Position numbers and translations under genes: made by a program | Shown here: piece after piece, positions 15,109 to 59,399 of the stretch | How positions within the stretch are numbered: the first letter of the stretch is position 1 | How the letters are laid out: every line of letters begins with the position of its first letter | Notes under the pieces: generated by a model | What the model saw: only the letters and a program-made list of their open reading frames with translations | Database searches by the model: none | Told to the model about the DNA's origin: nothing | Assembly: GCA_003133685.1 (NCBI GenBank) | Contig: PKYQ01000023.1 | Coordinates: 20,075 to 84,074, forward strand | Direction: 5' to 3' | Source: Acidimicrobiaceae bacterium | Lineage (GTDB): Bacteria > Actinomycetota > Acidimicrobiia > Acidimicrobiales > RAAP-2 | Length of the DNA stretch: 64,000 nt

Positions 15109-15149
15109 AGAAGCAAACTACTCAACGCCGCAGAATCAAATTTCACTGA

Positions 15150-15174
15150 TGTCGCGGGCCGACGTGCCCATTCT
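15150..15174 (+). repeat. Junction motif copy a (degenerate)
   Basis: TGTCGCGGGCCGACGTGCCCATTCT. The left flank is homologous to the flank of copy c. Confidence 0.6.
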
Positions 15175-15208
15175 CCGACTTACGATTCGCGCCGGTCTTG
15201 AGCTGAGG

Positions 15209-37614: not shown

Positions 37615-37661
37615 GCACCCCCAACGGGATTCGAACCCGTGCCGCCACCTTGAAAGGGTGG
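37615..37661 (-). repeat. att core: 47-bp copy of the tRNA-Glu 3' half
   Basis: Identical to 48566-48612 and 59326-59372. Confidence 0.96.
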
Positions 37662-37943
37662 GTGAATTCAAATCTGCACGACGGTGAAACCACTGATCAA
37701 CAGCAATATCCAATGACGTTTATTTCTGCTTAGGGGGCCTTCGGGCATACTTCGGGCATAAGCCAAGACTGCCTCCTTCAACAGGTGCGTGCGATTCAAT
37801 GCTGACGAGGTCTTAGTTCTACGAACATCGGATCGGAGTCGTGTCAATTCGTACGCCCAACGAGGGCGCCAGCCACTTCCAGAATTGCTATCGACAGTTT
37901 CCGATAGTCGTTGTACCGTTGAGCACAAAGCGGGAGATTGGTG

Positions 37944-39014: not shown

Positions 39015-39089
39015 ATTCCGACGTTCCTCGTATAGACGTCGCGACGCGACAAGACGACGCGATATCTGAAATCATCGCAGTGATTGTGG

Positions 39090-39115
39090 TGTCGGAGGCC
39101 CGACGTAACAGTTCT
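39090..39115 (+). repeat. Junction motif copy b
   Basis: TGTCGGAGGCCCGACGTAACAGTTCT(GCAG). Confidence 0.9.
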
Positions 39116-39472
39116 GCAGTCTTTCACTGGCGTATAGGTTCGTGCACACCTGATCATTGAAATCGGCCACAACGTAGTGCGGAAAGGTCATCTTGGCGCG
39201 AGACCACTGGTCCAAGAACGTCAACTAGGTTCAGAAACGTGAATCGCGGCTCGCGAACTTATTCAGGTCCGCTCTCTCGTAAAGAGCGAATCTTGGATCG
39301 ACTTCGATACCGATTCTTTCCGCCCAAACACCCGTTCCTGAATCCATTTCAACAGATCATCTGGCGCGGGCAACGTCTCGTAAGTGGCGACAACCGACAT
39401 CGGAGAGCCAAGGTTCGCTAGGACGGGCGAGGGTCATATAACTTTTGACCATCACACACGGAGAATCGACGT

Positions 39473-40615
39473 ATGAACTTCACTCGTAAGTTCGTGACCG
39501 CCAGTGCACTGTTTGCGCTCGTCACGGGTCTGTCATTCGCTCCCTTGCTGACCGCGTCATCCGCCACGGCACCGTTCAAACACCCAACCGCTATCGCACT
39601 TGACCACGATGGTCACCTGTGGGTCTCCAATCAGGACTACTTCGGTGTTACCGAGATCGAGGCCAGTACTGGGCAAGTGATTCGCGTCATTAACGCCAAG
39701 GCCGATGGCTTCATCGATCCGTACGGTATTTCCGTGTCGGGCCAGCACGTATGGGTCGTGAGCGGCGGTGTCGAATACGGCAATGGCACCAGCCATGTCG
39801 GCACGGTGACGGAACTCGACGCGACAACCGGCGCCCTGATACGAACCGTCAATCTCAAGAAGAACGGCGTGACGGGTCTCTCCGCTGTCAGCGCCGACAA
39901 CCAGCACGTGTGGGTCACCGCAGACGGCGGGGGAAGAGTCGTTGAACTGTCGAATGCGACCGGTCGCGTCGTGCACGTCTATCGAGGTCGCCTTAATCAT
40001 GTCGAGCCCGATGGCGTTGCCTCGAACGGCAGCGATGTCTGGGTTGTAGGCCCAGAAGTTGGAAATGGCGTGGTGGAACGCAGCGCCGTCACCGGACGGA
40101 AGTTGCGGACCTTGACGCCGACCCATCCCGAAGCGTCGCCAGGTGAGAAATACAAGTTTCCGGTGTACCTCTCGCCCAATTGTGTGACGGTCGATGCGCG
40201 CTATGTATGGACGGGTAACGGAGGGTCCTTGAGCTACAAGCTCCTAGGTGGTTCAGTCACGCAAATTGACGCCGCCACAGACAAAATCGTTCGCACCGTG
40301 GGCAGTAGCGCCGATGGCTTCTCGGGCACGATCCAGAGTGTTGATTCGGACGGCACGCACGTGTGGGTTGTCAACGGCTCCGTCTCATACCGAGGGCACC
40401 GTCGTGGTGACTCGGTCACTGAGTTGAATGCAACGAATGGTTCGCTGGTGCGAGTCATTCAGTTGCACGATGGCACCTACGCCGACCCCGTGGGCGTGGT
40501 CTCGAACGGCGTCGACGTGTGGGTCACCGACACCGGTGGTGGAACAGACGGCATTGGCAGCGTCATAGAACTCAATGCCGATAACGGCGCCGTGGTGCGA
40601 ACGATTGCCGGATAA
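39473..40615 (+). CDS. Secreted YncE/Vgb-like repeat beta-propeller
   Basis: Signal peptide; about 7 repeats of HVWV...VTELDATTG..IR. Confidence 0.85.
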   Translation: MNFTRKFVTASALFALVTGLSFAPLLTASSATAPFKHPTAIALDHDGHLWVSNQDYFGVTEIEASTGQVIRVINAKADGFIDPYGISVSGQHVWVVSGGVEYGNGTSHVGTVTELDATTGALIRTVNLKKNGVTGLSAVSADNQHVWVTADGGGRVVELSNATGRVVHVYRGRLNHVEPDGVASNGSDVWVVGPEVGNGVVERSAVTGRKLRTLTPTHPEASPGEKYKFPVYLSPNCVTVDARYVWTGNGGSLSYKLLGGSVTQIDAATDKIVRTVGSSADGFSGTIQSVDSDGTHVWVVNGSVSYRGHRRGDSVTELNATNGSLVRVIQLHDGTYADPVGVVSNGVDVWVTDTGGGTDGIGSVIELNADNGAVVRTIAG

Positions 40616-40627
40616 GTCAGGACAACT

Positions 40628-40833
40628 TTGGTCGGCCATGATTTAAGGCTCCATGACATGCGCCATACAGGTCTGACGCTGGCTGCAGCAACAGGAGCGA
40701 CGACAGCTGAATTGATGCACCGGGCGGGCCACGCTTCTGCCCCGCTTCCCTGCGGTATCAGCGTGCATCGAGAAATCGTGACCGGCGTCTTTCAGACGCC
40801 TTGGAGGACATGATCATCTTGCCTGAGGTTTAG
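40628..40833 (+). pseudogene. Tyrosine integrase 3' remnant, frameshifted
   Basis: DLRLHDMRHTGLTLAAATGATTAELMHRAGHAS, then in the shifted frame LRYQRASRNRDRRLSDALE. Paralog of 55536-56624. Confidence 0.9.
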
Positions 40834-40985
40834 AAAGTCTCAATCAGTAGAAATCGACCTTCAGGAGTGATCCGTTGGTCGTTGTGGTGCGCGTTTCGTG
40901 AACAATATTGACGTTCTTGTGTCCGCGCGGCTTATCTCGTCACTTTGAAGGAGGATGGAGAGCACGACGCACTGAGGAGAACACA

Positions 40986-41660
40986 ATGATGCCCATGCAA
41001 AGACGGCACTCATGGCCACGTCTCTCTCGCACTCTTCTTCCGGCTGTGACAATGGCGGTGCTCCTCGGCCTAGGTAGTCCCGTCGGCGCTTCCTCCGCCT
41101 CTTCTTCCTCGGTGGCCCTTCGCATCGCGGACTATGCGGTGGCAACTGCGACACACGACAACCCCGCCCACGTTGTCACGGCGGCCGATCTCAGCAATGC
41201 CGCCGGCATCACCGCTGTGAATAACACCAACCTTTTCCTCCTGATCAACGTGGGTGACGTGTTCGGGTTTTCGCGACTCGTTCTGTTCTTTCAAGAGAAA
41301 CCATTCGTCGACATCTGTCTCAACCTCCCTGACACTGTCGGCGGCACACCAAAGATCATTCCGTGCCCGCGCCAGGCTCGGGGGCTTTGGGATACTCACG
41401 GCGGCGCTCTTGCTGTCAGCAATCGGGCCATCGCTGCAGCCGCGGCGACCGGACACGCCGTGTCAGGTGCCGACGTTGTTGCAGCTGCGAAGGTTTATCA
41501 CTTGACACTTCGCCGCAAGCCAATTTTCCTCGCGGGACAAGGTGGCAAGGTGGAGTTCACGACGCCGGTTGAAATGGGACTAAACACGAAGTTCACGGTG
41601 GACACCTGCGTCCAACTGCCAAAGACCGCCTACGGCATACCCATCTGGGTGCCTTGCTGA
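40986..41660 (+). CDS. Secreted protein with two internal repeats, each ending in a Cys pair
   Basis: Signal peptide; VDICLNLP...PKIIPC and VDTCVQLP...PIWVPC. Confidence 0.75.
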   Translation: MMPMQRRHSWPRLSRTLLPAVTMAVLLGLGSPVGASSASSSSVALRIADYAVATATHDNPAHVVTAADLSNAAGITAVNNTNLFLLINVGDVFGFSRLVLFFQEKPFVDICLNLPDTVGGTPKIIPCPRQARGLWDTHGGALAVSNRAIAAAAATGHAVSGADVVAAAKVYHLTLRRKPIFLAGQGGKVEFTTPVEMGLNTKFTVDTCVQLPKTAYGIPIWVPC

Positions 41661-41662
41661 GA

Positions 41663-41980
41663 TCAGGAGCCTGAAACCTTCACAGACAAGCAGAGGTGGG
41701 TGCTCGTGTCGGTCACACCATGAATATGTACCGGCTCGAGTGGCTGTCTTGGCGACAGCGAGGTCTCTGGAGCGCTGATCTCGCTGTGACTGGTCAATAA
41801 AAGGGCTCGCGAAGGTGCTGGTGAAACGGAACTGTGTCCTTCAATAACTCCATCGAACTGCACCGCCCTTGCAATCAACGCACCCCAAAGTGCGGGCGAA
41901 GAGTTTTGACTTAGCTGTCGGTGAGGTCCTTCGTCGGAAGTCTCGGGTCTCTTTCCTGCACGAGGTTGAAGAAGTGTCAC
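41663..41980 (-). pseudogene. 3'-truncated DUF5519-like paralog
   Basis: Aligns with the first ~100 aa of 14647-15108, then stops after HLCLSVK at the stop of the convergent gene. Confidence 0.8.
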
Positions 41981-42020
41981 GAACGCAAACTACTTAACGC
42001 CGCAGTATCAAACTTCAAGG

Positions 42021-42046
42021 TGTCGGTGGCCCGACGTAAAAGATCG
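42021..42046 (+). repeat. Junction motif copy c
   Basis: TGTCGGTGGCCCGACGTAAAAGATCG. Confidence 0.85.
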
Positions 42047-42109
42047 ATGTAGAGATCGACAACGGACGCATCGTTGATTTCGGCGTGAATTGCCCGCGAC
42101 ATGCAGGCG

Positions 42110-43330
42110 TCAAACTGAGACGACTTGCCAGTGACCCCCAGCGTCGCTCGTATGAAACAGTGCAGAGTGAGTCCGATTTGACTCACTCTGCACGATTGCG
42201 AAGCCGGTTGAACGACTTGCAAACACAACCTGGGAGACAGAGCGGTTGAGGACGACTTTCCAATTTTTCCCCCAATTCGTGCTGCGAATTAGCTGAAGGC
42301 GCGAATTCGTTGCCCGTTGGAGGAGAATTGTCCCAGGTACGGGCGCGGCCGGTAGTCCAGGCACGGCGTAGTAACCCCTTTGATAGGAACTTGACAGTTC
42401 TCGAAGTGGTTTGAACGTCGCCCCAGCGTCATAGGAAATGAAGAGCCACGAAGCGCTGTTGTTCCAATCGGGCGGCACGGTAGAAGCCGGCGGGATTACA
42501 AAGCCAGCGCTTTGGCCCACAGCGAGTAGAACCTTGCTTGTCACCGCCGTTATCGGACTAAAGCTCGCACCGAAATCCTCGAAAGAGGGACCGCTCCACG
42601 CTCTCCATGAGCCGTCATTCGACAGTCGTAAACTCGCGGTGAATCCGCGATCGTTCCCAGCAACAAGCCACCCACTGGAACCGATGAAACTGAATTGACC
42701 TTCCAATTCGCTACCTCCCGCGGGCACCAACATTGGTGCATTCGAATCCTTTGTCCATTGGTCCGCGTTTGAATGAGTAGCAAGAACGTAGGCATGACCG
42801 TTTTCATAAGATCCACCGAAGAGGTACGTCCATGCCCCATGCGTCGCCATCTGGATCACCCCGGAAGTGATTGAGAGCGGGCCAAGCCGAATTTGACGCC
42901 ACGTCTTGCCACCGTCATGGGTTGACCACAGACGACTGACCCAGTTTGGATTGGTCGTGTTCGGTGTAACAGGCGCGGGGACCGTTCCATAGATCCAGCC
43001 GTTTTGCGCGTTGGCGAAGTGGACGTTGATCGTCGAATACGAACTGCTGAAAGTACCCCACGAAACGAGGTGGAAGTCTTTGTTCATCTGGCCCGGCGTA
43101 TGAACAACATTCCACGACGAAGCCGCGTCAATGGTGCTTCGCAGGGCAGCGCACGTTCTCCCGCCGCAGTCATAGAGCGAGAGCACGTAGCCAAGGTGGG
43201 AAGACGGGAACGATAAGGACATGGGGTCCAGTTGAAGTGAAGTCGCCTCCGCCAACCCTGGAGTGAAACTCAACGAAAACATGACGACAATGCCGACTAA
43301 TAGTCGCCACATTCTCAATCCCAGAATCAT
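42110..43330 (-). CDS. Secreted BNR/Asp-box beta-propeller (406 aa)
   Basis: STHDGGKTW, SYDAGATF, HTSDAGGHW. Close paralog of 53897-55117. Confidence 0.87.
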   Translation of the reverse strand: MILGLRMWRLLVGIVVMFSLSFTPGLAEATSLQLDPMSLSFPSSHLGYVLSLYDCGGRTCAALRSTIDAASSWNVVHTPGQMNKDFHLVSWGTFSSSYSTINVHFANAQNGWIYGTVPAPVTPNTTNPNWVSRLWSTHDGGKTWRQIRLGPLSITSGVIQMATHGAWTYLFGGSYENGHAYVLATHSNADQWTKDSNAPMLVPAGGSELEGQFSFIGSSGWLVAGNDRGFTASLRLSNDGSWRAWSGPSFEDFGASFSPITAVTSKVLLAVGQSAGFVIPPASTVPPDWNNSASWLFISYDAGATFKPLRELSSSYQRGYYAVPGLPAAPVPGTILLQRATNSRLQLIRSTNWGKNWKVVLNRSVSQVVFASRSTGFAIVQSESNRTHSALFHTSDAGGHWQVVSV

Positions 43331-43441
43331 TCAAACTCCCTCGACGTGCTTGGTTTACCACGAAGCGGAATCGAACGACCGTCGCGCCCGATGGTTGAGG
43401 TCTCTTACTTGTCGGATTGAATCAAGGTTGCGAATCTGCGA

Positions 43442-43467
43442 TGTCGGGGGCCCGACGTAACAGTTCT
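43442..43467 (+). repeat. Junction motif copy d
   Basis: TGTCGGGGGCCCGACGTAACAGTTCT. Confidence 0.9.
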
Positions 43468-43732
43468 AATGGGTCTGGACGGCGCCACTTTTTTGAGTGA
43501 TGCTGTCTCCGAGCCACTGGCCGGGAGCATTGTCTGCAACCCGAGCGTTCAGCTCTAGTGCAAGAGCGTGCCCCAGTCGGTCGGTGAGGTTGACGGGTAT
43601 GGCTGAAGGGGTGTCGCGCCATGAGCACTGATCCATTAGGTCGCCACCGTCTCCTCGGGGCTAGTCCGCTTAGGACTTCAGGCTGGCGGCTGCAACTGTG
43701 CTTGCTGCACGCTGAATGATACGTTCAGTCCC

Positions 43733-44791
43733 ATGCAGAGATTCCTGGTCAAAACTTGGTTGGTGGCAGGGATGCTAGTGGCCAGCAGCACTCTCTTACC
43801 TGGCGTGTCATCGGCGTCTAAATCTACTTCTCGGGGTGCGACAGTTGCGCTCAAGACGCCCGCGGCCTTGGCCGTGTCATCCAAAGGCGTGCTCTACGTG
43901 GTTGACGCGAGCCGAGACCAGATCGTGCGGCGATTGTCAAGCGGTCGGTTCCAGGTGGTAGCGGGAGATGGACGTCGCGGTTTCTCCGGTGATGGCCACT
44001 TGGCGATTGACGCCGAAATCTCGATCAACCAACGGAGCGGTCTGGCGGTAGCGGTAAACGGAACTGTCTACTTCGCTGACGAGGGAAACGGTCGTGTTCG
44101 CGAGATACTGCCCAATGGCGACATTGAAACGGTCGCAGGTGGCGGAAGCGAGACTCCTGGCACGATATCCATTCCTGCGTTGCGCGCCAGGTTCGGAGCC
44201 CTTGATCAGTTGAACGGCTTGGCCATGAGTCCAGGAGGTGAGTTGTACATCGGTGCTAACGGCGTGTACCGATTGGTGAGCGGGGTGCTCCACTGGGTTG
44301 TCGGCACTGATGCAACTGGTCTCAACAAGGGATTCAAGGGTTATGGATCAAGTCCCGTCTTCCAGAAGGACTTCGACCCGGCGTACACCTTGGTCTTCGA
44401 CGGCAAAGGGGACTTGCTCGTTGGAGGTGGAAATACGTGGAGCCTCTACGAAAGGACCGTCGGAGGAGCATTTCGCTTCATCCAGGAAGACCGTGCTCAG
44501 GGCGGGTACTACGCAGCGATGGCCGCAGCGCCTGATGGCAACGTGGTATTGGCCGGAGGAGCGCTCGGCCTGGCATGGTTCCATCCTTCGGGAGTGATCA
44601 CGGCGATTCCTGCTTCTGAACTGTCAACGTTGCTCCCGCCACCGAGTCACTTCACCGTCGGTGAGAGTGTCGCCGTGGCCCCTAATGGTGCGGTTTATCT
44701 AGATGCTGACGCCAACAACGGCTTCACCAACGTGAGTGCGATTGTTCAAGTCACCTCTGCGGGACACGCAGTGCTGGTTTGGAAGTCCTGA
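43733..44791 (+). CDS. Secreted NHL-repeat protein
   Basis: Signal peptide; P.ALAV...LYVVD, VAGDG..GFSGDG, GTVYFADEGNGRVR. Confidence 0.85.
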   Translation: MQRFLVKTWLVAGMLVASSTLLPGVSSASKSTSRGATVALKTPAALAVSSKGVLYVVDASRDQIVRRLSSGRFQVVAGDGRRGFSGDGHLAIDAEISINQRSGLAVAVNGTVYFADEGNGRVREILPNGDIETVAGGGSETPGTISIPALRARFGALDQLNGLAMSPGGELYIGANGVYRLVSGVLHWVVGTDATGLNKGFKGYGSSPVFQKDFDPAYTLVFDGKGDLLVGGGNTWSLYERTVGGAFRFIQEDRAQGGYYAAMAAAPDGNVVLAGGALGLAWFHPSGVITAIPASELSTLLPPPSHFTVGESVAVAPNGAVYLDADANNGFTNVSAIVQVTSAGHAVLVWKS

Positions 44792-44874
44792 TGCAGTTCA
44801 GAGTTCGCCGGGACTCGCAAACTTGTCAGAGAATATCGTGCGACTGAAAGACGAGTCGATCGAGTCTCAATGGG

Positions 44875-44900
44875 TGTCGGTGGCCCGACGACCCAGTTCT
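44875..44900 (+). repeat. Junction motif copy e
   Basis: TGTCGGTGGCCCGACGACCCAGTTCT(GCAG). Confidence 0.88.
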
Positions 44901-45048
44901 GCAGCCCCGCATTGGCGACTCACGCACACGAAATAGTCACCGAATATGACGCCAGCGATTCATCTTCCAATTACTCACCTTCAAGGCGGAGGTCATCTAC
45001 GTGACCATGATCTCCGACGATAACTCGACGGTCAAGGTTCGAATGATG

Positions 45049-45067
45049 ATACTATTCAAATTAGTTC
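45049..45067. promoter_or_regulatory. Putative YtrA-type operator directly before gntR
   Basis: ATACTA-TTCAAAT-TAGTTC; near-identical to 52553-52571. Confidence 0.6.
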
Positions 45068-45068
45068 T

Positions 45069-45416
45069 ATGAATTTCTCTGAAGTTGACCGAAGCGAGCC
45101 AATCGCACTCCACCATCAGGTTGCCGCCGATATTCGTCGCGCGATTGCTGACGGTGAAGCGGCCCAAGGCGAGCGTCTACCGCCGGCGATCGACCTTGCC
45201 GCTGTCCTTGGGGTGAACAAGAACACGGTCATCCGAGCGCTGCACATCCTGCGTGAGGAGGGAGTCCTTGACTTCACGAGGGGGCGAGGCATTCGAGTGG
45301 TTGGCACCCCTGCGCGAAGTGCTCTTCTCACGAAGATGAACGAGCTCGTCTCTTTGGCGCGCGAGCAGGGATATCGCAAAGACGAGTTGGCTTCAATGAT
45401 TCTTTCGGTCCAGTAG
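45069..45416 (+). CDS. GntR family regulator, short YtrA-like type
   Basis: GERLPP..DLA..LGVNKNTVIRAL..LR.EG...TRGRG; 115 aa. Confidence 0.92.
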   Translation: MNFSEVDRSEPIALHHQVAADIRRAIADGEAAQGERLPPAIDLAAVLGVNKNTVIRALHILREEGVLDFTRGRGIRVVGTPARSALLTKMNELVSLAREQGYRKDELASMILSVQ

Positions 45417-45428
45417 CGAGGTTTCGAC

Positions 45429-46712
45429 ATGTCTCTCTTGACCGAAAAGAAAGATCAACTCTTGGTCGAGGAGATCGTGGTCCTCATTCCCGAAGCGCGC
45501 ATGCGCCAGCGGCGTCGGTGGTTACGTACGGGCTTGATCGTCCTCTTGGTGAGCGCCGTGGTACTTCTTGTTTCCCTCTACGTCGGTGGCTTAGGTAATC
45601 GGTCCACCACACCACCTGGGCCGAGTTCCGCGTTGACTCAAAGCTCAGTCACCCCTTTGCCGGTGGGAACCGTGATTAACGCGTCATCGGTCGTCGCCAT
45701 TCAGATGTTTACCGCAACGCAGGGAGTCGCAATCGCGACCTTCTGGAACAAGAGCTTCACGACGATTGGGAACTCGTATTTGACGACGACCGTCAACGGC
45801 GGAACGTCGTGGCGGATCACGGGCGTGTTGCCAACTGGCTCGTGGGCCGCCCTCGGTCAGGACACAGGACTAATCGCATTCGTCTCGCCCCGAGAGGGTT
45901 ACATCGCACAGCCAGCGCCTCATGGCCCCCTATTCACTTCCAACGGGGGTCGCACGTGGAGGAGCGTCGCATTCGCGGGTGAGACCACCTCACTGTCGTT
46001 GTCTAAGGGTGACGTCGTCGTGAGCGCCGAACGTTGCCCCACCGGGTCGGTGGGTACCAATCCGTGCGTGACTCGTCTAGGCACTTTCCCACTGGGGTCA
46101 CTGACGCCGACGAGTGCCACCGTCATTCCATCCTTGTTGGCTGGATCTACGAAGGTTGCGCCGCAGGTACTCGCGTTGTCGGGCTCCATTGGAATGGCGG
46201 TGGAGGGTTCGACCCTCATCGCGACGTCGGACTCGGGAACTTCGTGGCGTCGAGTCACCAATCCCTGTCCTGGGGAGGGACCGGGCAAAGCGCAACTGGC
46301 AAGCGATTCTCGCTGGTACATGCTGTGCGGACGCGGTGTGGGAATGATGAAGGCGTATAACTGGCTCTACAAGACCGCCGACGGTGGTCGAACGTGGACA
46401 CTGGTTGCGAAAGGTTCACCACTGCGCGATGTCGGAACTGGCAACATCGGACCTTACGCCGTCAATGCCTTCGGCGTGAGCAATGATGGCCGCGAAATGT
46501 GGATCGATGGCGGCCCTGGATTCCTCGAAGTCAGTTCAGACGGAGGACGTCAATGGCGATTCGCCGGCACAATCGGTGCGAAGACGAATATCAACGGTCC
46601 CTATTTCGTGAGTGTCGGTCACGAAGTGTGGATGCCAATCGAATTCGGCGGGCTCGTTCGAGCGACTCGGGCATCCTCTTGGAAGATTGTGGCCGAGTCT
46701 TCGTTCTCGTGA
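45429..46712 (+). CDS. Membrane-anchored BNR/Asp-box beta-propeller
   Basis: N-terminal LIPEARMRQRRRWLR plus TM; five S/T-x-D/N-x-G-x-x-W boxes. Confidence 0.85.
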   Translation: MSLLTEKKDQLLVEEIVVLIPEARMRQRRRWLRTGLIVLLVSAVVLLVSLYVGGLGNRSTTPPGPSSALTQSSVTPLPVGTVINASSVVAIQMFTATQGVAIATFWNKSFTTIGNSYLTTTVNGGTSWRITGVLPTGSWAALGQDTGLIAFVSPREGYIAQPAPHGPLFTSNGGRTWRSVAFAGETTSLSLSKGDVVVSAERCPTGSVGTNPCVTRLGTFPLGSLTPTSATVIPSLLAGSTKVAPQVLALSGSIGMAVEGSTLIATSDSGTSWRRVTNPCPGEGPGKAQLASDSRWYMLCGRGVGMMKAYNWLYKTADGGRTWTLVAKGSPLRDVGTGNIGPYAVNAFGVSNDGREMWIDGGPGFLEVSSDGGRQWRFAGTIGAKTNINGPYFVSVGHEVWMPIEFGGLVRATRASSWKIVAESSFS

Positions 46713-46739
46713 TGTCTGAATGTCGCTACGGTACGACCC

Positions 46740-47081
46740 GTGATGAAGTCGCTCATCCAACATCTAGAGAAATTCACTTCGCCCGATTCAGAAGCCCGTG
46801 TTGTCATCGGCAGGGAAAGTTCAACCCTAACCAGGGACGCACTTCAAGGTTCGTGGGAGAGAGCGCGTTTGGCCATTGGGCGACCGGACCTAAGGCTCCA
46901 CGACATGCGTCACACCGGGTTGACTTTGGCGGCAGCGACGGGAGCTACGACGTCAGAACTGATGCACCGCGCCGGACACGCCTCCGCACCCGCTGCACTT
47001 CGGTATCAGCATGCAACTAGAGATCGTGACCGGCGACTATCAGAAGCGCTGGAGGCCACGATTCCCGACCCGGAGATTTAG
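46740..47081 (+). pseudogene. Tyrosine integrase 3' remnant (about 113 codons)
   Basis: RDALQGSWERARLAIG.PDLRLHDMRH...GH...RYQHA, near-identical to the C-terminus of the intact integrase. Lacks the N-terminal domains and catalytic R/K. Confidence 0.92.
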
Positions 47082-47097
47082 GGCGGTACCACAATGT

Positions 47098-48348
47098 TCA
47101 AATTCCGCAATGCAAGTTTGAGAGCGGAAAGCTGAGAGCGGATGTCTCCGTTCCACGGTCCGTTCGTATGGGCGCAAGGAAAGTCACCACCAACCTCGAG
47201 TCACTGGACTGCATGGCGACAACAGGGTTTTGCTTGGTTGCTGTCGGCAACGGCGCACTCGCAGCGCACCACGCATTCGAGTCCGGCTTCAGGATTTCAA
47301 GGTGCTCGGCGGCCTCAAGTGGAGAGCCAGAGACCGCAATGAGAACTCCGTTGGCCGTAATCGTCATTACCTGTCCGAACGGAGCGAACGTTCCTCCGAC
47401 GGGCGCTCCGTCGATTTTCGGCAGTGAAACTGTGGTCCAGTTGATTCCATTGCGGGTGTAGAGGAGAGCGTCCGGTCGGCTGCGGTCGATGAGGAATTCG
47501 TCTCCTGATGTCGTGGCTACGAGCTGCTGGCTGCCGCATTGGCTCACGCTCGAGACGGCTCCGGCCGAGCGCCATCGAGTTGTGGTCGTGCCCTGTCCCG
47601 AGGCAACGACGAGAACCGACTGCTGCCACTCGGACATCCCACAAGCCCCCTGAGGCGACTCCGGGCCGAAGATCACACAAGTCTTACTCGCTGTGCAACC
47701 CAAGCGCAGGTCCGTCCACGAATGCCCGCCAGTTGACGACGACGCTGCAACGAATGAGGCTGTTTGTCCCGTCTTAAGTGGAAAGAAGTAGTTGCGCGAG
47801 TAGAGCAACGCGACGCCGCCGAGTCGCTCGTCGAATCCTGCAAAGTCGGTCAACGAGTAGCCACGAGGAGGCGGTACGAACCGCCAACTCTTACCCAAGT
47901 TTGAGGTTACGAGCGCGACATCGTAAGCCGGCGGAATCGATTCACCGTGACTCGCTTGGAAGCCGGCATAGACGGTCTTCGGATGGCTGGGATCGAGTGC
48001 GATGTTTTCGCACGTAACGACCACCTTCGAGCCCCCAGACAAACTAGGCAGTCCCAGATGGGAACGGCTCAGCATCGGCTCCACAGAACTATCCGGGACA
48101 AGAATTGTCTTGTCACTGCCTGCAGCAATCTCCACTCCTTTTTTGGAGCACCACGCATAGGTCGCACTCCCGGGTTGGGCGGCAATGGGGCTGCCCCACC
48201 CAGCAGGCTGGATGAGTAGGGGCCGGACAACTCCCAGGGACGCCCACGGTATCGAAGGGCCATCAGTCGTGGCCATCGAAGGCGTCGCGGTAACGGCGCT
48301 AATCGCAATCGTGGCGACAGTGAGAAATACTCGGCGAAAGATGACCAC
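47098..48348 (-). CDS. Secreted beta-propeller-like protein with Asp-box-like repeats
   Basis: Signal peptide; TSNLGKSW, SSTGGHSW, TRNGINW; several Cys pairs. Confidence 0.78.
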   Translation of the reverse strand: MVIFRRVFLTVATIAISAVTATPSMATTDGPSIPWASLGVVRPLLIQPAGWGSPIAAQPGSATYAWCSKKGVEIAAGSDKTILVPDSSVEPMLSRSHLGLPSLSGGSKVVVTCENIALDPSHPKTVYAGFQASHGESIPPAYDVALVTSNLGKSWRFVPPPRGYSLTDFAGFDERLGGVALLYSRNYFFPLKTGQTASFVAASSSTGGHSWTDLRLGCTASKTCVIFGPESPQGACGMSEWQQSVLVVASGQGTTTTRWRSAGAVSSVSQCGSQQLVATTSGDEFLIDRSRPDALLYTRNGINWTTVSLPKIDGAPVGGTFAPFGQVMTITANGVLIAVSGSPLEAAEHLEILKPDSNAWCAASAPLPTATKQNPVVAMQSSDSRLVVTFLAPIRTDRGTETSALSFPLSNLHCGI

Positions 48349-48565
48349 GCTTCACTATCGCATTCCATTGTCGACAGCGTGGCTCGGGGGATAGAGCCCC
48401 TTCAGCCTCAGAGCAGTCAAGGTCGAATCACTTGCTTGGTGCGCCATTTCGGGCATATAACGGGCATGTAGCAGGGGTAAATGGTGGTTATTCGCGGTCA
48501 CCATTGGTCACTCGCGGACACTCCAAAACCCTTGCAAATAAAGGGCTTTAGGCCGAATTTCCAGA

Positions 48566-48612
48566 GCACCCCCAACGGGATTCGAACCCGTGCCGCCACC
48601 TTGAAAGGGTGG
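48566..48612 (-). repeat. att core, junction of elements B and A
   Basis: Exact 47-bp tRNA-Glu 3' half. Confidence 0.96.
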
Positions 48613-48784
48613 GTGAAATCTGATTGAGCCAGTGGTGAAACCACTGATCAACAGCAATATTCATAGACGATGCCTTCCGACTAGAAAGGCTCTGGGCATA
48701 CTACGGGCATAAACGGAGATTGTCTCGTGCAACAAGGGGAGGGCGATTCAGACTGACCAGTTCGTTCGTGTAACGCTGACTCCG

Positions 48785-49399
48785 ATGCGGACATTTCCTG
48801 TAGTGGGATCACCAAAAGAAGAGTCCGCAGCTTGGGCTGCATCACTAGAGAACGACGGGAACGCCTTCGCCGAGGTCTTCGATCTGCACCGCGACCGTGT
48901 TTATCACCACGCCCTACGAATGACCGCCAACGTCCACGATGCGGAAGACGTCGTTGCAGCCGCATTCTTCGAACTATGGCGCCTGCGGAAGTCTGTTCGA
49001 GTGGTCGATGGTTCCGTGTTGCCCTGGCTTCTGGTCACCACTACAAATCTCTCGCGAAATCTGACTCGTGGAATCCGTCGTTATCGAGCACTGATCGCGT
49101 CATTGCCACGCGCCATAGAAGTGCGAAGTTCGGAGGATGCTGCGTTGGAAAAGATTGAAGAGCTGCGACTCGCCGCAAACCTGCGCGAAGCGATGAGCAC
49201 TCTCGCGCCTGCGGATGCTGCCCTCATCATTCTCACTACCTTCGAGCATTACTCGCTCGCAGAAGTTGGCGCTGCCCTTGGCATCTCTGACGGCGCTTCA
49301 CGAACACGCCTTCACCGCGCTCGGACGCGCCTAGGGGTTGCGCTCGAATCGTTGGAACAAGTTGATGGCGACTTCATGACGAAGGGGAGGAATCGATGA
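48785..49399 (+). CDS. ECF sigma-70 factor
   Basis: DAEDVVAAAFFELW...PWLL (region 2); SLAEVGAALGISDGASRTRLHRAR (region 4). Confidence 0.93.
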   Translation: MRTFPVVGSPKEESAAWAASLENDGNAFAEVFDLHRDRVYHHALRMTANVHDAEDVVAAAFFELWRLRKSVRVVDGSVLPWLLVTTTNLSRNLTRGIRRYRALIASLPRAIEVRSSEDAALEKIEELRLAANLREAMSTLAPADAALIILTTFEHYSLAEVGAALGISDGASRTRLHRARTRLGVALESLEQVDGDFMTKGRNR

Positions 49400-50211
49400 G
49401 CACCTTAGAGATGGATCCGGTATTCACCGCAGCACTTCGCGAAGCACTGATTAGCAACGCAATATCGATTCCCCAAGCGAAGCGCCGATGGCGTTGGCGC
49501 TTCGGTGCCGGCATGTTCGTGACCTTGTCGATTGCGGCTGGAGGTGTGGCACTGGCTACGGGTCTGTTTTCACAACCCGGTGCCCCTATTGACACCCAAC
49601 TCGGCAGCATCGTTGTTGCTACACGAACGGGTACAGCGACGATCGAAGTCGGCACACCGCCCGCAGGAGCAACCGATATTTCACTCACGCTGACCTGCCT
49701 CACGGCGGGCTTGTTCGATTTTCCCAACGGTTCGAGCATGACGTGCAACGCGGCCGATCTAAGCCGACCATCAGCTCAACGCTCGGGGAGCGAAGTCGTG
49801 CCAATTAGTCCCGGCTCTGACATGGTGACGATCGAGACGAGTTCGAACGCAACGTGGACGTTGCAAGCCGTCTTCGTGAATCGGGTCCCGACCACTTGGG
49901 GCGTCAACGCGAACGGTCAAACTTACGGTGTATCGAACCAGCAAGGCACCCCTGATCTCATATCCGTCGTGATCGACGACGGCGCGAAATATGGCTATGT
50001 TACGAAGAGCGAATTGAACTGCGCAGCAGGTGGTGACGTCACATCGTCGGCGGAGGCTCAAGCTTGGGACAAAGTGAGCCAGAACCTGAATGTTTCCATT
50101 CCCGCTTACGAGAGCGATGGCGTGACGGTCGTCGGTACCTTCACTGTTGGTAGTGCCACTGGACCGAATGCAAAGACGGTCCCGCTCTCGTCTCTCTCGT
50201 TGGGCTGCTAG
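49396..50211 (+). CDS. Putative anti-sigma factor, single TM with extracytoplasmic domain
   Basis: ATGA overlap with the ECF gene; basic patch plus TM; C-terminal NANGQTYG...PDLISV domain. Confidence 0.75.
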   Translation: MSTLEMDPVFTAALREALISNAISIPQAKRRWRWRFGAGMFVTLSIAAGGVALATGLFSQPGAPIDTQLGSIVVATRTGTATIEVGTPPAGATDISLTLTCLTAGLFDFPNGSSMTCNAADLSRPSAQRSGSEVVPISPGSDMVTIETSSNATWTLQAVFVNRVPTTWGVNANGQTYGVSNQQGTPDLISVVIDDGAKYGYVTKSELNCAAGGDVTSSAEAQAWDKVSQNLNVSIPAYESDGVTVVGTFTVGSATGPNAKTVPLSSLSLGC

Positions 50212-50264
50212 ACAAATCCAGAACCGCATCCCTCCTCTAAATCAAGAGACTGAGTGAGGGTACT

Positions 50265-50290
50265 GGTCGTGGGCCCGACATAACGGGTCT
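50265..50290 (+). repeat. Junction motif copy f, between convergent stops
   Basis: GGTCGTGGGCCCGACATAACGGGTCT(GCTA). Confidence 0.8.
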
Positions 50291-50328
50291 GCTACTAGCC
50301 ACTGGAGACTTCGGAGTTCGGCACCGGT

Positions 50329-51021
50329 TCATGCGGGTGCGCTTTGAATGAGTGCCTTGACTACTGCCTCGGCCTGGTTTACAAAGGAAACGGCGTTGTC
50401 TTGGGAAAGAAAGAACTTCGGAGAGCTGGCCACCGCATTTCTCAACCGAAGAAGCCGAAAAGAGGCGTCTGCGAGTTCAGACGTAACTACTCCTTGGTCG
50501 GCCAGGTACCTTGGCCGGACAAGACTTGGGAGAGTCGGCGCGTTACTGCCGAGCAGATCCGAAATCGCCCCTTCAACTTTTTGGCCCGCCAGATGCACCG
50601 CGTAGTGAGGGCTGATACTCAAATAACCGCGAACCTCTGCCCACTGTTCATCGCTGTACCTTTCAGCCCAGGACACGGTTCTCTTAGCCCGCTTTGACGG
50701 AATCGGTTGAGGCGAACGCAACTTGACGGTGGACTCTTCGATTGCGATCTCTTCCTCTGGCGTGCTGGGCGCAGCCGGCACCCGGTGTGTCAGAGTCGAA
50801 CCAATCATCACGTCTGCCGCCACGAGATCAAGCTCAGCCTTTGTGTTCTTACGCGGAGAGAACCCAAAACTGAAGTGTGAACCACCTACAGAAAAGTCGG
50901 CGGAAGACAGTTCGGCAAGCTTCTTTGTGAGCTCTCTACGGAAAGCAATCAGCGCAACCAGAACGACTATTGGCCAAGCAATGTGGCCAATCAGGTCATC
51001 GACAAACTGCAGGGTAGTCAC
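50329..51021 (-). CDS. N-terminal TM plus HEPN-like helical domain
   Basis: IAWPIVVLVALIAFRREL TM; C-terminal SP..A....VE...LLRLRNAVAS (Rx4H with His replaced by Ser). Confidence 0.6.
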   Translation of the reverse strand: MTTLQFVDDLIGHIAWPIVVLVALIAFRRELTKKLAELSSADFSVGGSHFSFGFSPRKNTKAELDLVAADVMIGSTLTHRVPAAPSTPEEEIAIEESTVKLRSPQPIPSKRAKRTVSWAERYSDEQWAEVRGYLSISPHYAVHLAGQKVEGAISDLLGSNAPTLPSLVRPRYLADQGVVTSELADASFRLLRLRNAVASSPKFFLSQDNAVSFVNQAEAVVKALIQSAPA

Positions 51022-51250
51022 GATTCAATCCTCGATGAACGGCGCCAAGGCAAACTGAGGCTCGTTTCTGCTGAGCGTAGTGCAATGTGGGCCTCTGTGC
51101 TTCTCCTGCTGCGCGGAAAGAGTCACCGGCAGTCAGCCGGGTTACTGATCAGAAAAGTCACCACCCCATCGCATCGCCAGTCTCTCCGGGACGAGACAAC
51201 GGTTCTGTTGCCGGACAATGGCGGTTCGCCATGTAGTCGACCCTCACCGG

Positions 51251-51276
51251 TGTCGGGGGCCCGACACAATAGTTCA
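51251..51276 (+). repeat. Junction motif copy g
   Basis: TGTCGGGGGCCCGACACAATAGTTCA(GCAA). Confidence 0.88.
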
Positions 51277-51325
51277 GCAATCCTTGACGGGCGGCTCTCC
51301 CCCGCGCGTTGGACTGGCGAAGCGA

Positions 51326-51679
51326 TTAGGGACCGTCGATACCGAACACGTTGCCGAAGGGATCCACGAACTGGGCGATAATCCTTTCGGGCGACAGAGT
51401 CAATGGTCCGCGATGTTTGGTTGCTCCGAGAACTATCGCCTCATTCATCGAAGACTGGAAATCCGATGACGCAAAATACACAACCGGAGTTCCTCCCTGC
51501 GGGTTGCGCCCGTCGTCAGAGGGATGGAATCCATACTCCGTCTTGCTGGCGACGAACCAACAGAACCCGTTCTCTTCGTTGACTAACTGGGCTGGTACAT
51601 TAAGCAACTCCGACCACCAGTGAGCCACTTCGCTGGGTTTCTTGCAAAAGAGCATCACAGTTTTGATTTCGCCATTCAT
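51326..51679 (-). CDS. VOC/glyoxalase family protein
   Basis: WWSELL, PVVYF, LGAT...GP, FVDPFGNVFGI. ATG 51679. Confidence 0.85.
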   Translation of the reverse strand: MNGEIKTVMLFCKKPSEVAHWWSELLNVPAQLVNEENGFCWFVASKTEYGFHPSDDGRNPQGGTPVVYFASSDFQSSMNEAIVLGATKHRGPLTLSPERIIAQFVDPFGNVFGIDGP

Positions 51680-51747
51680 GCTTCCGACACTACGGTTCAA
51701 TTGGTCAGGCCGACGTCGCAGAAGTTCCACCCTCGAAGAGTGCGGCG

Positions 51748-52524
51748 TCAGCGGACCGACTGTCCTGTACGAACCCACTCATGACGAGTGTCATTCAAGA
51801 CGTAGGTGGCGTAACTTGCCTTTGGCAGGTCTCCGTCAGGGAACGGACGTATCCGAATTCCAATGCTGACGCTGACAGTCTCGTTACTGATTATCCAGTC
51901 ACTAGCGGGGTTCAAGTACTGGTACCAATGGCGTCCTCTGTCGGTCGAGACGTCGATAACGGCATTGCTGACCATCACTATGGCTGATGGTCCATCTGGA
52001 ATTACTTTGTTCACGAAGTAGATACCTCCGCCAACCCAGTCAGTCGCGAGCATCGGGCCGGCCGCCCTCCAGTGGGCTCCGCCGTCGATGCTGCGAACGG
52101 GAAACAGTCCTCCGTCGCCGTTCACTCGCCACACGCCCCACTCGACGCTCGCAATCGGCGACTTGATTTCGATCCACCGCAATTGCGTAGCGGGAAGAAT
52201 CGTCCCCCAAGGTAGAGCACGAACTTGAACGTCAATCCCACCCTCGTACATTCCACGTCGCATCTTGAGCGTCGCAGGGTAGGGCGATGTCTTAGCGGCT
52301 GCACCAGTCTTCGGTTCGGTGTTGACCGGTGTGTTCACGTGCTTTGGCGGACCATTGTTGCCGGCTGCGAGGAAACCCGTCACCGTTGCCACCATTGCAG
52401 CGATTACCACAGCGAGGTCGCGTTGCCGGCGACGGCGAGAAGCCGCTCGAGCTTCTCTAATGAGGAGTTCCGCGGGCTCCGTCGTCTCACCGATTTCGTG
52501 TTGACGGGTCGGAGTGATGATCAT
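51748..52524 (-). CDS. Membrane-anchored exported protein with Asp-boxes
   Basis: ATG 52524 with GAGAAAGG RBS; ELLIREARAASRRRRQR plus TM; RSIDGGAHW, VSTDRGRHW. Confidence 0.8.
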   Translation of the reverse strand: MIITPTRQHEIGETTEPAELLIREARAASRRRRQRDLAVVIAAMVATVTGFLAAGNNGPPKHVNTPVNTEPKTGAAAKTSPYPATLKMRRGMYEGGIDVQVRALPWGTILPATQLRWIEIKSPIASVEWGVWRVNGDGGLFPVRSIDGGAHWRAAGPMLATDWVGGGIYFVNKVIPDGPSAIVMVSNAVIDVSTDRGRHWYQYLNPASDWIISNETVSVSIGIRIRPFPDGDLPKASYATYVLNDTRHEWVRTGQSVR

Positions 52525-52552
52525 GGGCCTGCCTTTCTCAGCACGTCTTATG

Positions 52553-52571
52553 GTACTATTCATACTAGTTC
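52553..52571. promoter_or_regulatory. Putative YtrA-type operator in the 48-nt divergent gap
   Basis: GTACTA-TTCATAC-TAGTTC (6-7-6 inverted repeat, one mismatch). Confidence 0.65.
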
Positions 52572-52572
52572 T

Positions 52573-52920
52573 ATGCAAACACTCAAAGTCAACAAAGATG
52601 AACCGGTCGCATTGCACGATCAAGTGGCCGCCGAGATTCGTCGAGCCATCGCTGACGGCGAGGCTGCTCAAGGCGAACGTCTTCCCCCGGCAGTAGACCT
52701 GGCGACGGTACTCGGCGTGAACAAGAACACGGTGATTCGTGCTTTGCATATTCTGCGCGACGAGGGACTGCTCGACTTCACGAGAGGGCGTGGCATTCGA
52801 GTAGTTGGATCTCCCCAACGCGGAGCGGTGATGACCCGCATCGATGAACTGCTCGTCTTTGCCCGGACACAAGGGTATCGCCACGATGAAGTTGTTGCCC
52901 TGATCCAAGCTCGGAGTTGA
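52573..52920 (+). CDS. GntR family regulator (YtrA-like), paralog of 45069
   Basis: True start ATG 52573, 115 aa; the HTH is nearly identical to 45069-45416. Confidence 0.92.
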   Translation: MQTLKVNKDEPVALHDQVAAEIRRAIADGEAAQGERLPPAVDLATVLGVNKNTVIRALHILRDEGLLDFTRGRGIRVVGSPQRGAVMTRIDELLVFARTQGYRHDEVVALIQARS

Positions 52921-52984
52921 AGATGCCTGTGCATGTACAGTCAGGTTTGCGCTGGGACAAGAAGATTCGAGAGTTAGGGGATCC

Positions 52985-53827
52985 ATGACCCTTTCGCCAA
53001 CTCGTAGCAATCCCACCGGAGAGACCCCCGACTCTGCAGAGCTGCTCATCAAAGAGGCTCGGCGTGCCAAGCGTCTGCGTCGATTGCGAAATATTGCAAT
53101 TGTGTTTGTCGCATTGGTGGTTGTCACTGTGATCTCCGTCATTCAGACACTGAACAAAACTCCTTCAAAGCCGAAGCCCGAGACGGCGGTTGTGAAGTTC
53201 GTCGATTCGATGAAGCACGCCAACGGCACTCGATTCGTTGCGACCTATCGCGTTCATCATTACGACTGGATGGACAATGGCGTCATCACGATGGCCCAAA
53301 TTCCGAGCCCACCTGGCACCAAAGCCACAACCAACAGCGACGGCTATTCGGGTAGTGGCAAATACGCCTACATCTATCGAAACGCAGACGGTCGTATCTC
53401 GCAGTGGATCAAAATCGGAACCAACGTGAGCGGGTGTGCGATGCCGGCCAAGGGCCCAAGCCGTCAGATGCAGTGTTCGAGACTCAGTCCGTATCTCCCT
53501 TCAAATGGCTTTGCCTATGCAGATGTTGGGTTCGTGCCGACGTACGTGATGCAATCAATTCTCACGTCGAACGGGATCGGCAAATCCCTGAAATTGACGA
53601 CGAGGGTCTCCACTCAATTCGGTCGCCTGACGTGTCTGACGCAAACCTTCCCTTCGACGATCCAAACCACATGCATAGACCGATCGGGCTACGTCGTACT
53701 TTGGAGGTACCACAACTTCCACTATTCGAGTTCGGCGACCCTTACCGCTTTCAATCGTCATCCGACTGCCAGCGATTTCAGAACATTAATTAAGCCGACG
53801 AAACCACTGGTCTTGCCAGGATTGTAA
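52985..53827 (+). CDS. Membrane-anchored exported protein
   Basis: ELLIKEARRAKRLRRLR plus TM, then a beta-rich Cys-containing domain. Confidence 0.8.
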   Translation: MTLSPTRSNPTGETPDSAELLIKEARRAKRLRRLRNIAIVFVALVVVTVISVIQTLNKTPSKPKPETAVVKFVDSMKHANGTRFVATYRVHHYDWMDNGVITMAQIPSPPGTKATTNSDGYSGSGKYAYIYRNADGRISQWIKIGTNVSGCAMPAKGPSRQMQCSRLSPYLPSNGFAYADVGFVPTYVMQSILTSNGIGKSLKLTTRVSTQFGRLTCLTQTFPSTIQTTCIDRSGYVVLWRYHNFHYSSSATLTAFNRHPTASDFRTLIKPTKPLVLPGL

Positions 53828-53842
53828 ATCTGATCGCGCGGA

Positions 53843-53868
53843 AGTCAGGGACCCGAAGCCACAGAACG
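53843..53868 (+). repeat. Junction motif copy i (degenerate, 17/26)
   Basis: AGTCAGGGACCCGAAGCCACAGAACG, in a 69-nt intergenic gap. Confidence 0.5.
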
Positions 53869-55117: not shown

Positions 55118-55535
55118 ATCGCATCACCGACGCAGTCCCCTTGTTTGACGTATATGTGAGTTCATCACGCTCATCTTCTTGAGCCATAGGTCCTCTTAAT
55201 TCCTACTGCCCGAGGACGGCGTGCGCGAAGCGCCAAGCCGTCCGTTCGGGCTACCTGGGTGATCATCAAAATCAATTAATACTTCGCAAATTCTGAAGAT
55301 ATTTGCATGCGCTCTTAAAGTTTCTGTTCGAAAACGCGGAAATGGGTGTGGCTGTCTTATAGAGGGCGAAAATCTCGTTCCTCTGTAAGGAGCACTATGA
55401 GACTGCCCATTTGCATCGGAGACCAGTTTCGATGATCGGTGACGACCCTCGGACTTATCAATTCAAGATCTCTGGACGACTACGTGATGATAGCGACCGT
55501 TGTCACTGGCTAATTGGAAGAGGAACGAGAAATTG

Positions 55536-59228: not shown

Positions 59229-59326
59229 TAGCAGTGGTAAATGGTGGTTATTGGTGGTCACTGCTGGTCACTCGCGGTCACTCCCAAACCCTTGCAAATA
59301 AAGGGCTTTCGGTCGATTTTCCAGAG

Positions 59327-59399
59327 CACCCCCAACGGGATTCGAACCCGTGCCGCCACCTTGAAAGGGTGGTGTCCTAGGCCGCTAGACGATGGGGGC
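59327..59399 (-). tRNA. tRNA-Glu(TTC)
   Basis: GCCCCCA/TGGGGGT acceptor stem, CCACC-CTTTCAA-GGTGG anticodon arm, GGTTCGAATCC T-loop; 73 nt, no encoded CCA. Confidence 0.97.

Follow-up and report, generated by a model that had tools for sequence, protein, structure and literature searches.

What is the function of a short motif that recurs on one strand, again and again, between genes that face either way? This question is raised by a window of 64,000 nt of an Acidimicrobiaceae bacterium (GenBank PKYQ01000023.1; C10:20075-84074 of the genome G000, which comprises 2.5 Mb on 33 contigs at 61.5% G+C), in which the motif, named here the S site and numbered from the T of TGTCGG as position 1, separates the cargo genes of integrated islands. 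The S site is probably an attachment and recombination site of large serine recombinases (LSRs), whose natural target would be the 3' end of tRNA-Leu(GAG), and it bounds mobile cassettes, usually of a single gene, which number in the hundreds within one genus of Acidimicrobiaceae from peat. The reading is based on cassettes that are shared between genomes and end in the core of the site, on the covariation of the central dinucleotide of the site with the resident tRNA-Leu, and on LSR genes whose ends overlap the site.

Anatomy and distribution of the S site

The six same-strand copies between 39090 and 51251 that a sequence-only reading of the window had reported are confirmed. The pattern TGTCGGNGGCCCGACRTAACAGTTCTG, with three mismatches at most, has four + strand matches in the window against 0.00 expected; five + strand positions carry the hairpin TGTCGGNNNNCCGAC without any mismatch (39090, 42021, 43442, 44875, and 51251), and the copy at 50265 (+) is degenerate; nhmmer with the family profile recovers all six at expectation values (E) from 3e-12 to 1e-5. 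The two outlying copies of that reading fared differently: the one at 15150 is present but weak, and the one at 53843 is not recovered by the family profile even at E <= 10. Maps of the open reading frames (ORFs) confirm that all six copies are intergenic. The copies, whose right arms belong to the types A, B, and C discussed below, are the following:

39076-39144, + strand: S site copy a, core TGTCGGAGGCCCGACG at 39090-39105, type A right arm and AYTGGCG box (E = 3e-12)
42007-42075, + strand: S site copy b, core intact, right arm degenerate beyond about +24 (E = 1e-5)
43428-43496, + strand: S site copy c, type A right arm, TCTAATGGG variant
44861-44929, + strand: S site copy d, type A right arm (E = 2.5e-9)
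50251-50319, + strand: S site copy e, degenerate core GGTCGTGGGCCCGAC, type A right arm (E = 2e-6)
51237-51305, + strand: S site copy f, type A-like right arm (E = 1.3e-7)
15136-15204, + strand: weak, decayed S site outside the island (E = 0.0046), left flank paralogous to that of copy b (repeat D1)

The conserved unit spans about 55-68 nt, not the 26-31 nt first assigned to it, and consists of a variable left arm, a core of 16-19 nt with the consensus (TGG)TGTCGGAGRCCCGACG, a right arm, and an AYTGGCG box; the left arm of copy e resembles a tRNA T-arm (B-type). The hairpin described at the outset exists, yet it measures just 5 bp, and RNAalifold on 21 copies returns a stem of only 3-5 bp with no covariation. 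A second hairpin in the right arm, considered by eye, was discarded because it is missing from type B and type C sites. A search of Rfam at E <= 1 over 37-60 kb returned tRNAs only and nothing at the S sites.

The motif is not restricted to the island genes between which it was first seen, since same-orientation arrays are found on at least nine contigs of the genome. Specifically, G000 carries 38 copies at a threshold of E <= 1e-3, or about 45 when the threshold is relaxed, in arrays on C16 (8-10 copies), C19 (6-10), C27 (10-11), C11, C9, C5, C21, C15, and C13, several of which reach contig ends. A covariance model detects the motif in 17 of the 25 genomes of the genus, with 0 to at least 30 copies each, and in none of 16 other families of the order. 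Moreover, an exact-pattern scan of 185,579 species genomes identified 91 stretches, nearly all of them in metagenome-assembled genomes of Acidimicrobiaceae/Acidimicrobiales from peat or permafrost. The pooled DNA (155 sequences) contains 411 distinct copies, none of its 93 multi-copy loci is mixed in orientation, and consecutive sites are spaced by a median of 800 bp (interquartile range 544-1386).

The only contig with both orientations is L027 (G011:C49, 1-10767), which holds two divergent S arrays; in G011 and in G007 (L025, G007:C34), the divergent arrays flank a conserved 4-kb module, 92% identical between the two genomes, and a tRNA-Lys(TTT). The four-gene block found there was considered as possible machinery and turned out to be cargo (MFS, PEBP, isochorismatase, and MarR). 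A distinct class of intervals, 42 of 296, is represented by "empty" doublets of 66-70 nt, as at C16:136356/136423, C19:1297/1230, C19:1826/1759, and C27:59735/59802 of G000 and in L023, L024, L025, L026, L027, and L028. In many doublets the left arm of the second site, CGTGTGGGTTCGAG, resembles the T-arm of tRNA-Leu in forward orientation, and these structures may be empty cassettes or attL-like hybrids.

Cassette sharing between genomes and breakpoints in the core

All-against-all BLAST comparison of the arrays reveals cassettes that recur from one genome to another among unlike neighbours and whose homology stops in the core. One cassette of G000 (C21, 4788-5365) recurs in G007 at 89%, with ends at +7/+19, and another is common to G015 and G011 at 81.5%, with ends at -26/-1 in both; G000 also shares a cassette of C11 with G007 (90%) and one of C16 with G023 (91%). 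The core flank of G000 and G007, the only one that can be compared, is 80% identical. The right arm moves with the DNA downstream of the site and the left flank with the DNA upstream. In the window, the right arm of copy c and about 200 nt downstream are homologous to the site at C16:139878, the sigma/anti-sigma segment to the left of copy e is homologous to G018 up to position +30 of the site, and a paralogous segment (14809-15150 and 41681-42021, the latter being the left flank of copy b) stops inside the core.

A deletion variant follows the same boundaries. Contigs from three peat metagenomes, which match the window at about 90% identity, connect 39118 directly with 44919, copies a and d being the left and right breakpoints of a 5.8-kb deletion that removes exactly the three cassettes between them; on its shorter side, the joint is flanked by 255 nt in X19 and by 30 nt in X17 and X18. 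The shared cassettes with core breakpoints and this cassette-level variant support the initial proposal of a same-orientation recombination site that bounds mobile single-gene cassettes, and the observations that could have undone it point the same way: all copies of an array face one direction, they lie between genes, and the breakpoints coincide with the motif. At 95% likeness, Logan contigs display no variant of the window's own strain. Joints at S sites of the C16 array in Logan contigs were not used as evidence, since their flanks measure merely 20-46 nt and most of the joints are accounted for by S copies elsewhere.

The spacings of 1421, 1433, and 986 bp that had been given for three window intervals are correct, the letters attached to them having been shifted by one; the genes that they enclose are listed here:

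42110-43330, - strand: BNR/sortilin-like beta-propeller gene, cargo of cassette b-c
43733-44791, + strand: NHL-repeat gene, cargo of cassette c-d
50329-51021, - strand: 230-aa ORF without Pfam match, cargo of cassette e-f

A glyoxalase-like protein is also encoded in the window cassettes. More generally, among 113 cassette ORFs searched against Pfam, the commonest families are GNAT acetyltransferases (9) and chloramphenicol-phosphotransferase-like proteins (4), followed by methyltransferases, mycothiol-S-transferase/DinB proteins, APH, alpha/beta hydrolases, NUDIX, and beta-lactamase-fold proteins, a profile that much resembles that of chromosomal integron cassettes. At a log-likelihood ratio of at least 10, 96 cassette genes lie opposite to the site strand and 77 on the same strand (55:45; 9 versus 6 in G000 alone), which argues that the cassettes have no shared promoter. 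The larger sample thereby replaces an early impression that 75-85% of the cassette genes are opposite to the site.

The same figures bear on the proposal that the S site is a regulatory element, such as a PafBC/RecA-NDp-type promoter, which the sequence-only reading had put forward as its alternative, a bidirectional terminator, or an insulator. TGTCGG-N10-TA does occur in some window copies, and stop codons often lie 30-120 nt from the site. Over the 411 copies, however, T is found at position 22 in 1% and at position 17 in 50%, and A at position 18 in 43%, and the promoter TGTCGGTG-N8-TANNNT was rejected on these grounds, as its last -10 T is found in 1% of the sites, its TA in under half of them, and the downstream genes face either way. 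Moreover, there is no U-tract, no covarying stem, and no Rfam family, genes flank the site in both directions at 55:45, and a regulatory function would leave the core breakpoints and the overlap with LSR genes and tRNA-Leu unexplained, making this reading very unlikely. The short intergenic repeat, its small hairpin, and its uniform orientation per locus could also recall a repetitive extragenic palindrome (REP/BIME-like) or a miniature inverted-repeat transposable element (MITE-like) spread on single-stranded hairpins by an HUH enzyme of the RAYT or IS200 type. This is scarcely credible, because the hairpin has 5 bp and no covariation, inverted pairs are missing, the copies are clustered in arrays instead of being dispersed, and the genome has no Y1 transposase (PF01797 has no match in G000, against matches in 6 of 14 control genomes); the HUH enzyme that had been listed among the candidates for the S site falls for the same lack.

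tRNA-Leu origin and the likely role of large serine recombinases

The origin of the site in tRNA-Leu(GAG) had escaped the sequence-only reading. The reverse complement of the S core, ...CGTCGGGCCTCCGACACCA, is the 3' strand of the acceptor of this tRNA, with the discriminator base and CCA, and coincides with its ...CCTCCGACACCA, as an integration remnant would. Sites of the minority type C match the last 32 nt of tRNA-Leu and are usually the final site of an array, and type A and type B sites diverge from the tRNA past position 9. In G015 and bog_806, a stretch of 20-400 nt separates the 3' side of tRNA-Leu from the start of the array, and the two share one orientation; the tRNA-Leu(GAG) of G000, at C14 c[4061-4147], has its site unoccupied.

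Position 9 of the S site is G or A depending on the genome and is near-uniform within each: A is found in 0 of 38 copies in G000, in 8 of 8 in palsa_458, and in 12 of 14 in G015. Its state corresponds to that of position 65 (C or T) of the resident tRNA-Leu in 8 of 8 and then 18 of 18 genomes (26 of 26 comparisons, some handles in the two sets possibly denoting the same genome). Serine recombinases need matching 2-bp overhangs, and a crossover at G8-R9 between S and tRNA-Leu therefore predicts the observed match at position 9.

The genes adjoining the sites point to the same class of enzymes. Relatives of G000 encode LSRs with Resolvase, Recombinase, and Zn-ribbon domains, whose closest solved catalytic domains are those of the TP901-1 integrase and of resolvases. 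An LSR gene adjoins an S site in G003, G006 (two genes), G010, G012, G013, G020, and others, and the end of all LSR genes found overlaps an S core or a true tRNA-Leu, with the LSR of clade 1 reading ...CKPVVSE through the core and that of clade 2 reading ...PEIVGVGGPT and a stop in another frame. The common type A right arm is mirrored by the left arm of clade 1, CAAGGTTGCAAACCTGT, directly upstream of the core, and the type B right arm by that of clade 2, CGGAGATTGTTG, with agreement at up to 14 of 17 outer positions, around a core GTCGG-AGRC-CCGAC. The complete site is thus an imperfect 2x27-nt inverted repeat centred between positions 8 and 9, which, as far as its sequence tells, is the layout of a serine-integrase attP with its central, non-palindromic dinucleotide (here G8-R9). 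About 10% of the array sites keep the mirrored left arm. Within the genus, 9 of the 17 genomes with the motif contain LSRs or their fragments, and none of the 8 without it does (hypergeometric p of about 0.012, computed by hand).

In the proposed mechanism, LSRs would recognize the 3' end of tRNA-Leu(GAG) as their natural target, and integration would rebuild the tRNA because its ...CTCCGACACCA end has its reverse complement, TGGTGTCGGAG, in the left half of the core. A cassette would consist of one S site and usually one gene with its own promoter, with a median of about 0.8 kb, and would circularize, entering and leaving through conservative exchange within the 16-19-nt core, catalyzed by an LSR between two S sites with crossover at G8-R9. 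Such an exchange would generate head-to-tail arrays in which all sites point one way regardless of gene direction. The LSR, whose final codons overlap the site, is encoded by rare autonomous elements; most cassettes have no enzyme and would be moved in trans. The arrays adjoin tRNA-Leu in some genomes and elsewhere, including the window, are carried inside other islands.

Several observations weigh against this mechanism. G000, at 95% completeness, has no serine recombinase despite at least 38 sites (a weak Resolvase match proved spurious, lying in the ruvA/ruvB region), and seven other motif-bearing genomes have no LSR either; in such genomes the enzyme would act in trans from unbinned elements, or else the arrays would be inactive. 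About 80% of the sites consist of the right arm and core only, next to an unrelated left flank. Canonical phage LSRs recombine attP with attB only and not like with like, CcrAB and TnpX-type LSRs being better precedents for like-with-like exchange. Neither circular cassettes nor excision junctions were found in Logan contigs, where rare excision products are beyond reach because these data are assembled contigs, and the S core has no match in the IMG/VR viral contigs scanned. The doublets of 66-70 nt and the AYTGGCG box do not follow from the LSR model and are left unexplained by it. Lastly, the G/A covariation could partly reflect two vertically inherited clades of the genus.

Some of these points would be accommodated if the S site were a true cassette recombination site worked by another enzyme, either a Xer-type or integrase tyrosine recombinase or an unrecognized protein, and LSR elements merely exploited the tRNA-Leu-like sequence as att. 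The array-rich genomes devoid of LSRs, the asymmetry of most sites (core plus one arm), and the like-with-like exchange, which is typical of tyrosine enzymes and resolvases and not of phage LSRs, would suit such an enzyme, and G000 encodes four tyrosine recombinases. Nevertheless, this explanation is unlikely, given that no tyrosine recombinase gene adjoins an array or overlaps a site, that the integrase remnants of the window are not adjacent to S, and that the 5-bp inverted repeats 4 nt apart, the 27-nt mirrored arms, and the pairing of two arm types with two LSR clades fit serine integrase sites. IntI is also absent: the best TIGR02249 score in G000 is 68.5 bits against a cut-off of 265, and the matches are Xer- or phage-type integrases. 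The S consensus, read by eye, contains no RYYYAAC/GTTRRRY box pair of attC, and the description of the system as integron-like without attC-type structure or IntI is upheld. The candidate enzymes named with that description are not: nothing ties the host XerC/D to the site, and the tyrosine integrase of the island targets tRNA-Glu repeats.

A second explanation without active cassette recombination considers the sites as passive scars, that is, decayed att remnants of serial LSR-element integration, with differences in content arising through homologous or short-homology recombination between the repeats. Islands of Prochlorococcus carry scattered partial-tRNA repeats from successive integrations and offer a precedent (10.1101/2020.12.28.424599). 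The genus studied here has true 60-nt partial tRNA-Leu copies, G000 has no enzyme, and exchange of the RecA type would likewise be focused on the core, since no other identical stretch is as long. Decay does not readily account for a consensus of its own, unlike the tRNA at positions 10-13, that is kept over 411 copies in dozens of genomes, nor for a position 9 that is homogeneous per genome and tracks the tRNA, nor for the 27-nt P arms that are kept without any LSR coding remnant. Moreover, cassettes are more alike between genomes than the single flank compared, and the single-gene spacing and detoxification-type cargo are unlike decayed prophages or elements. Passive scars are consequently regarded as rather improbable, and a recombination site of LSRs remains the preferred reading.

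The partial tRNA-Leu(GAG) copies comprise the last 58-68 nt at 88-96% identity and are located at G007:C44:5513-5572, in G012:C28, in G015:C61 and C91, in fen_670 (L185), and in palsa_657 (L186); separate from the S family, they resemble classical att remnants left by elements whose identity block is longer. An arm of a third kind, with TTGTACAA palindromes (AGTTGTACAAGAT...), adjoins tRNA-Leu or the S core, as in the tRNA-Leu flanks of RAAP-2, MFD06092.1.32, and palsa_511 (L170, L172, and L184) and in the left arm of C27:53574 of G000, and may be a sign that this core also serves another, third family of elements. At the tRNA-Leu of G006, the LSR element measures about 3.9 kb and carries beside the LSR a gene for a 257-aa protein (L021:3954-4727, - strand) that scores 25.8 bits for REP_ORF2-G2P, below the cut-off of 27.8; with an LSR and a Rep-like gene, the element may be a tiny integrative replicon. 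In G020, a single, closed-looking contig of 2.59 Mb scored as 65% complete, the LSR homologues contain in-frame TGA or TAG stops and may be pseudogenes or indicate an oddity of the assembly or the code.

The S arrays of the window lie within two tandem islands integrated at tRNA-Glu, of which two features are relevant here:

37615-37688, - strand: degenerate tRNA-Glu(TTC) copy, att repeat of the tandem islands that bear the S arrays
55500-56624, + strand: tyrosine integrase of the island, without link to the S sites

The partners of the att repeat are located at 48566-48620 and at the true tRNA-Glu (59326-59399). The C-terminus of the tyrosine integrase is present three times, intact at 56277-56624 and as remnants at 40634-40833 and 46734-47081 (the latter also given as 46740-47081), and paralogous GntR genes are found at 45069-45416 and 52600-52808; together they are consistent with repeated insertion at tRNA-Glu that did not involve the S sites. 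Peat metagenomes also contain a strain devoid of the first of the two islands (joint 37666->48693). Other Logan contigs join 50215->37886 and 53837->39212 relative to the window, and in relatives the anti-sigma gene that ends at 50211 is joined directly to the gene at 37938, which corresponds to a different order of the island modules.

Relation to known systems and biological meaning

The arrays combine traits of several known systems. In Mycobacterium tuberculosis, the LSR of phiRv1 integrates into the multi-copy REP13E12 repeat, and both cases involve an actinobacterial LSR and a chromosomal target repeated at several loci; REP13E12, however, is about 1.4 kb long and contains genes, and it forms no cassette arrays and does not mimic a tRNA. 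In the staphylococcal cassette chromosome (SCC/SCCmec), the CcrAB LSRs act at the 3' end of rlmH (orfX). The likeness to the S arrays concerns LSR integration at the 3' end of a conserved gene, head-to-tail stacking, short direct repeats of the integration site that bound the elements, and many stacked units that lack a recombinase and are moved in trans, as proposed for the S cassettes. Conversely, the S target is the 3' end of tRNA-Leu(GAG), the units are mostly single genes of about 0.8 kb in place of the 3-60 kb of SCC, each genome has tens of sites in many arrays, some of them far from the primary target, the sites retain a long conserved arm, and the S system is known here from sequence alone.

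With integrons, the S arrays share cassettes that mostly contain a single gene and each end in a recombination site, the uniform orientation of these sites, a content that is hypervariable between relatives, and a cargo of the GNAT, DinB, phosphotransferase, and glyoxalase type. They differ in that they lack IntI, that the site is conserved as a sequence and not as a folded single-strand structure, and that the genes have neither an orientation bias nor a shared promoter comparable to Pc; moreover, the S site is derived from a tRNA, and its likely enzyme is a serine recombinase, whereas IntI is a tyrosine recombinase. In the tycheposons of Prochlorococcus, integration at a tRNA pushes older elements outward and a minority of elements use LSRs (10.1101/2020.12.28.424599). 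Repeated integration at a tRNA gene and partial-tRNA repeats throughout the island are common to both systems, although tycheposons number one or two per genome, possess their own integrase and replication genes, and leave true tRNA-fragment repeats, whereas the S sites are a diverged family with its own consensus, at single-gene density and at many loci. The system would work like SCC composite islands, with a logic that resembles that of integrons and, putatively, the enzymology of serine recombinases; literature searches revealed no description of equivalent arrays.

The broadest interpretation, advanced tentatively and at somewhat less than even confidence, is that this peat Acidimicrobiaceae genus has independently evolved an analogue of the integron, in which LSRs capture, stack, and exchange promoter-bearing single-gene cassettes through a site that mimics tRNA-Leu, with a 2-bp crossover matched to the host tRNA and most cassettes mobilized in trans. 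The covariation of the central dinucleotide provides a directly testable prediction of this scheme, which could also provide genome engineering with new pairs of LSRs and att sites whose specificity is possibly like-with-like. The usual textbook case of a gene-cassette platform is the integron, which has been reported as absent from Actinomycetota. If the interpretation is true, the existence of another such platform, based on a serine recombinase and a site of tRNA origin, would show that cassette arrays are a convergent solution and no peculiarity of IntI and attC, and Actinomycetota would have a store of adaptive genes comparable to that of integrons. Such a store would explain part of the flexible genome of the abundant Acidimicrobiaceae of peat and permafrost, whose cassettes carry acetyltransferases, phosphotransferases, mycothiol/DinB-type transferases, and beta-lactamase-fold enzymes.

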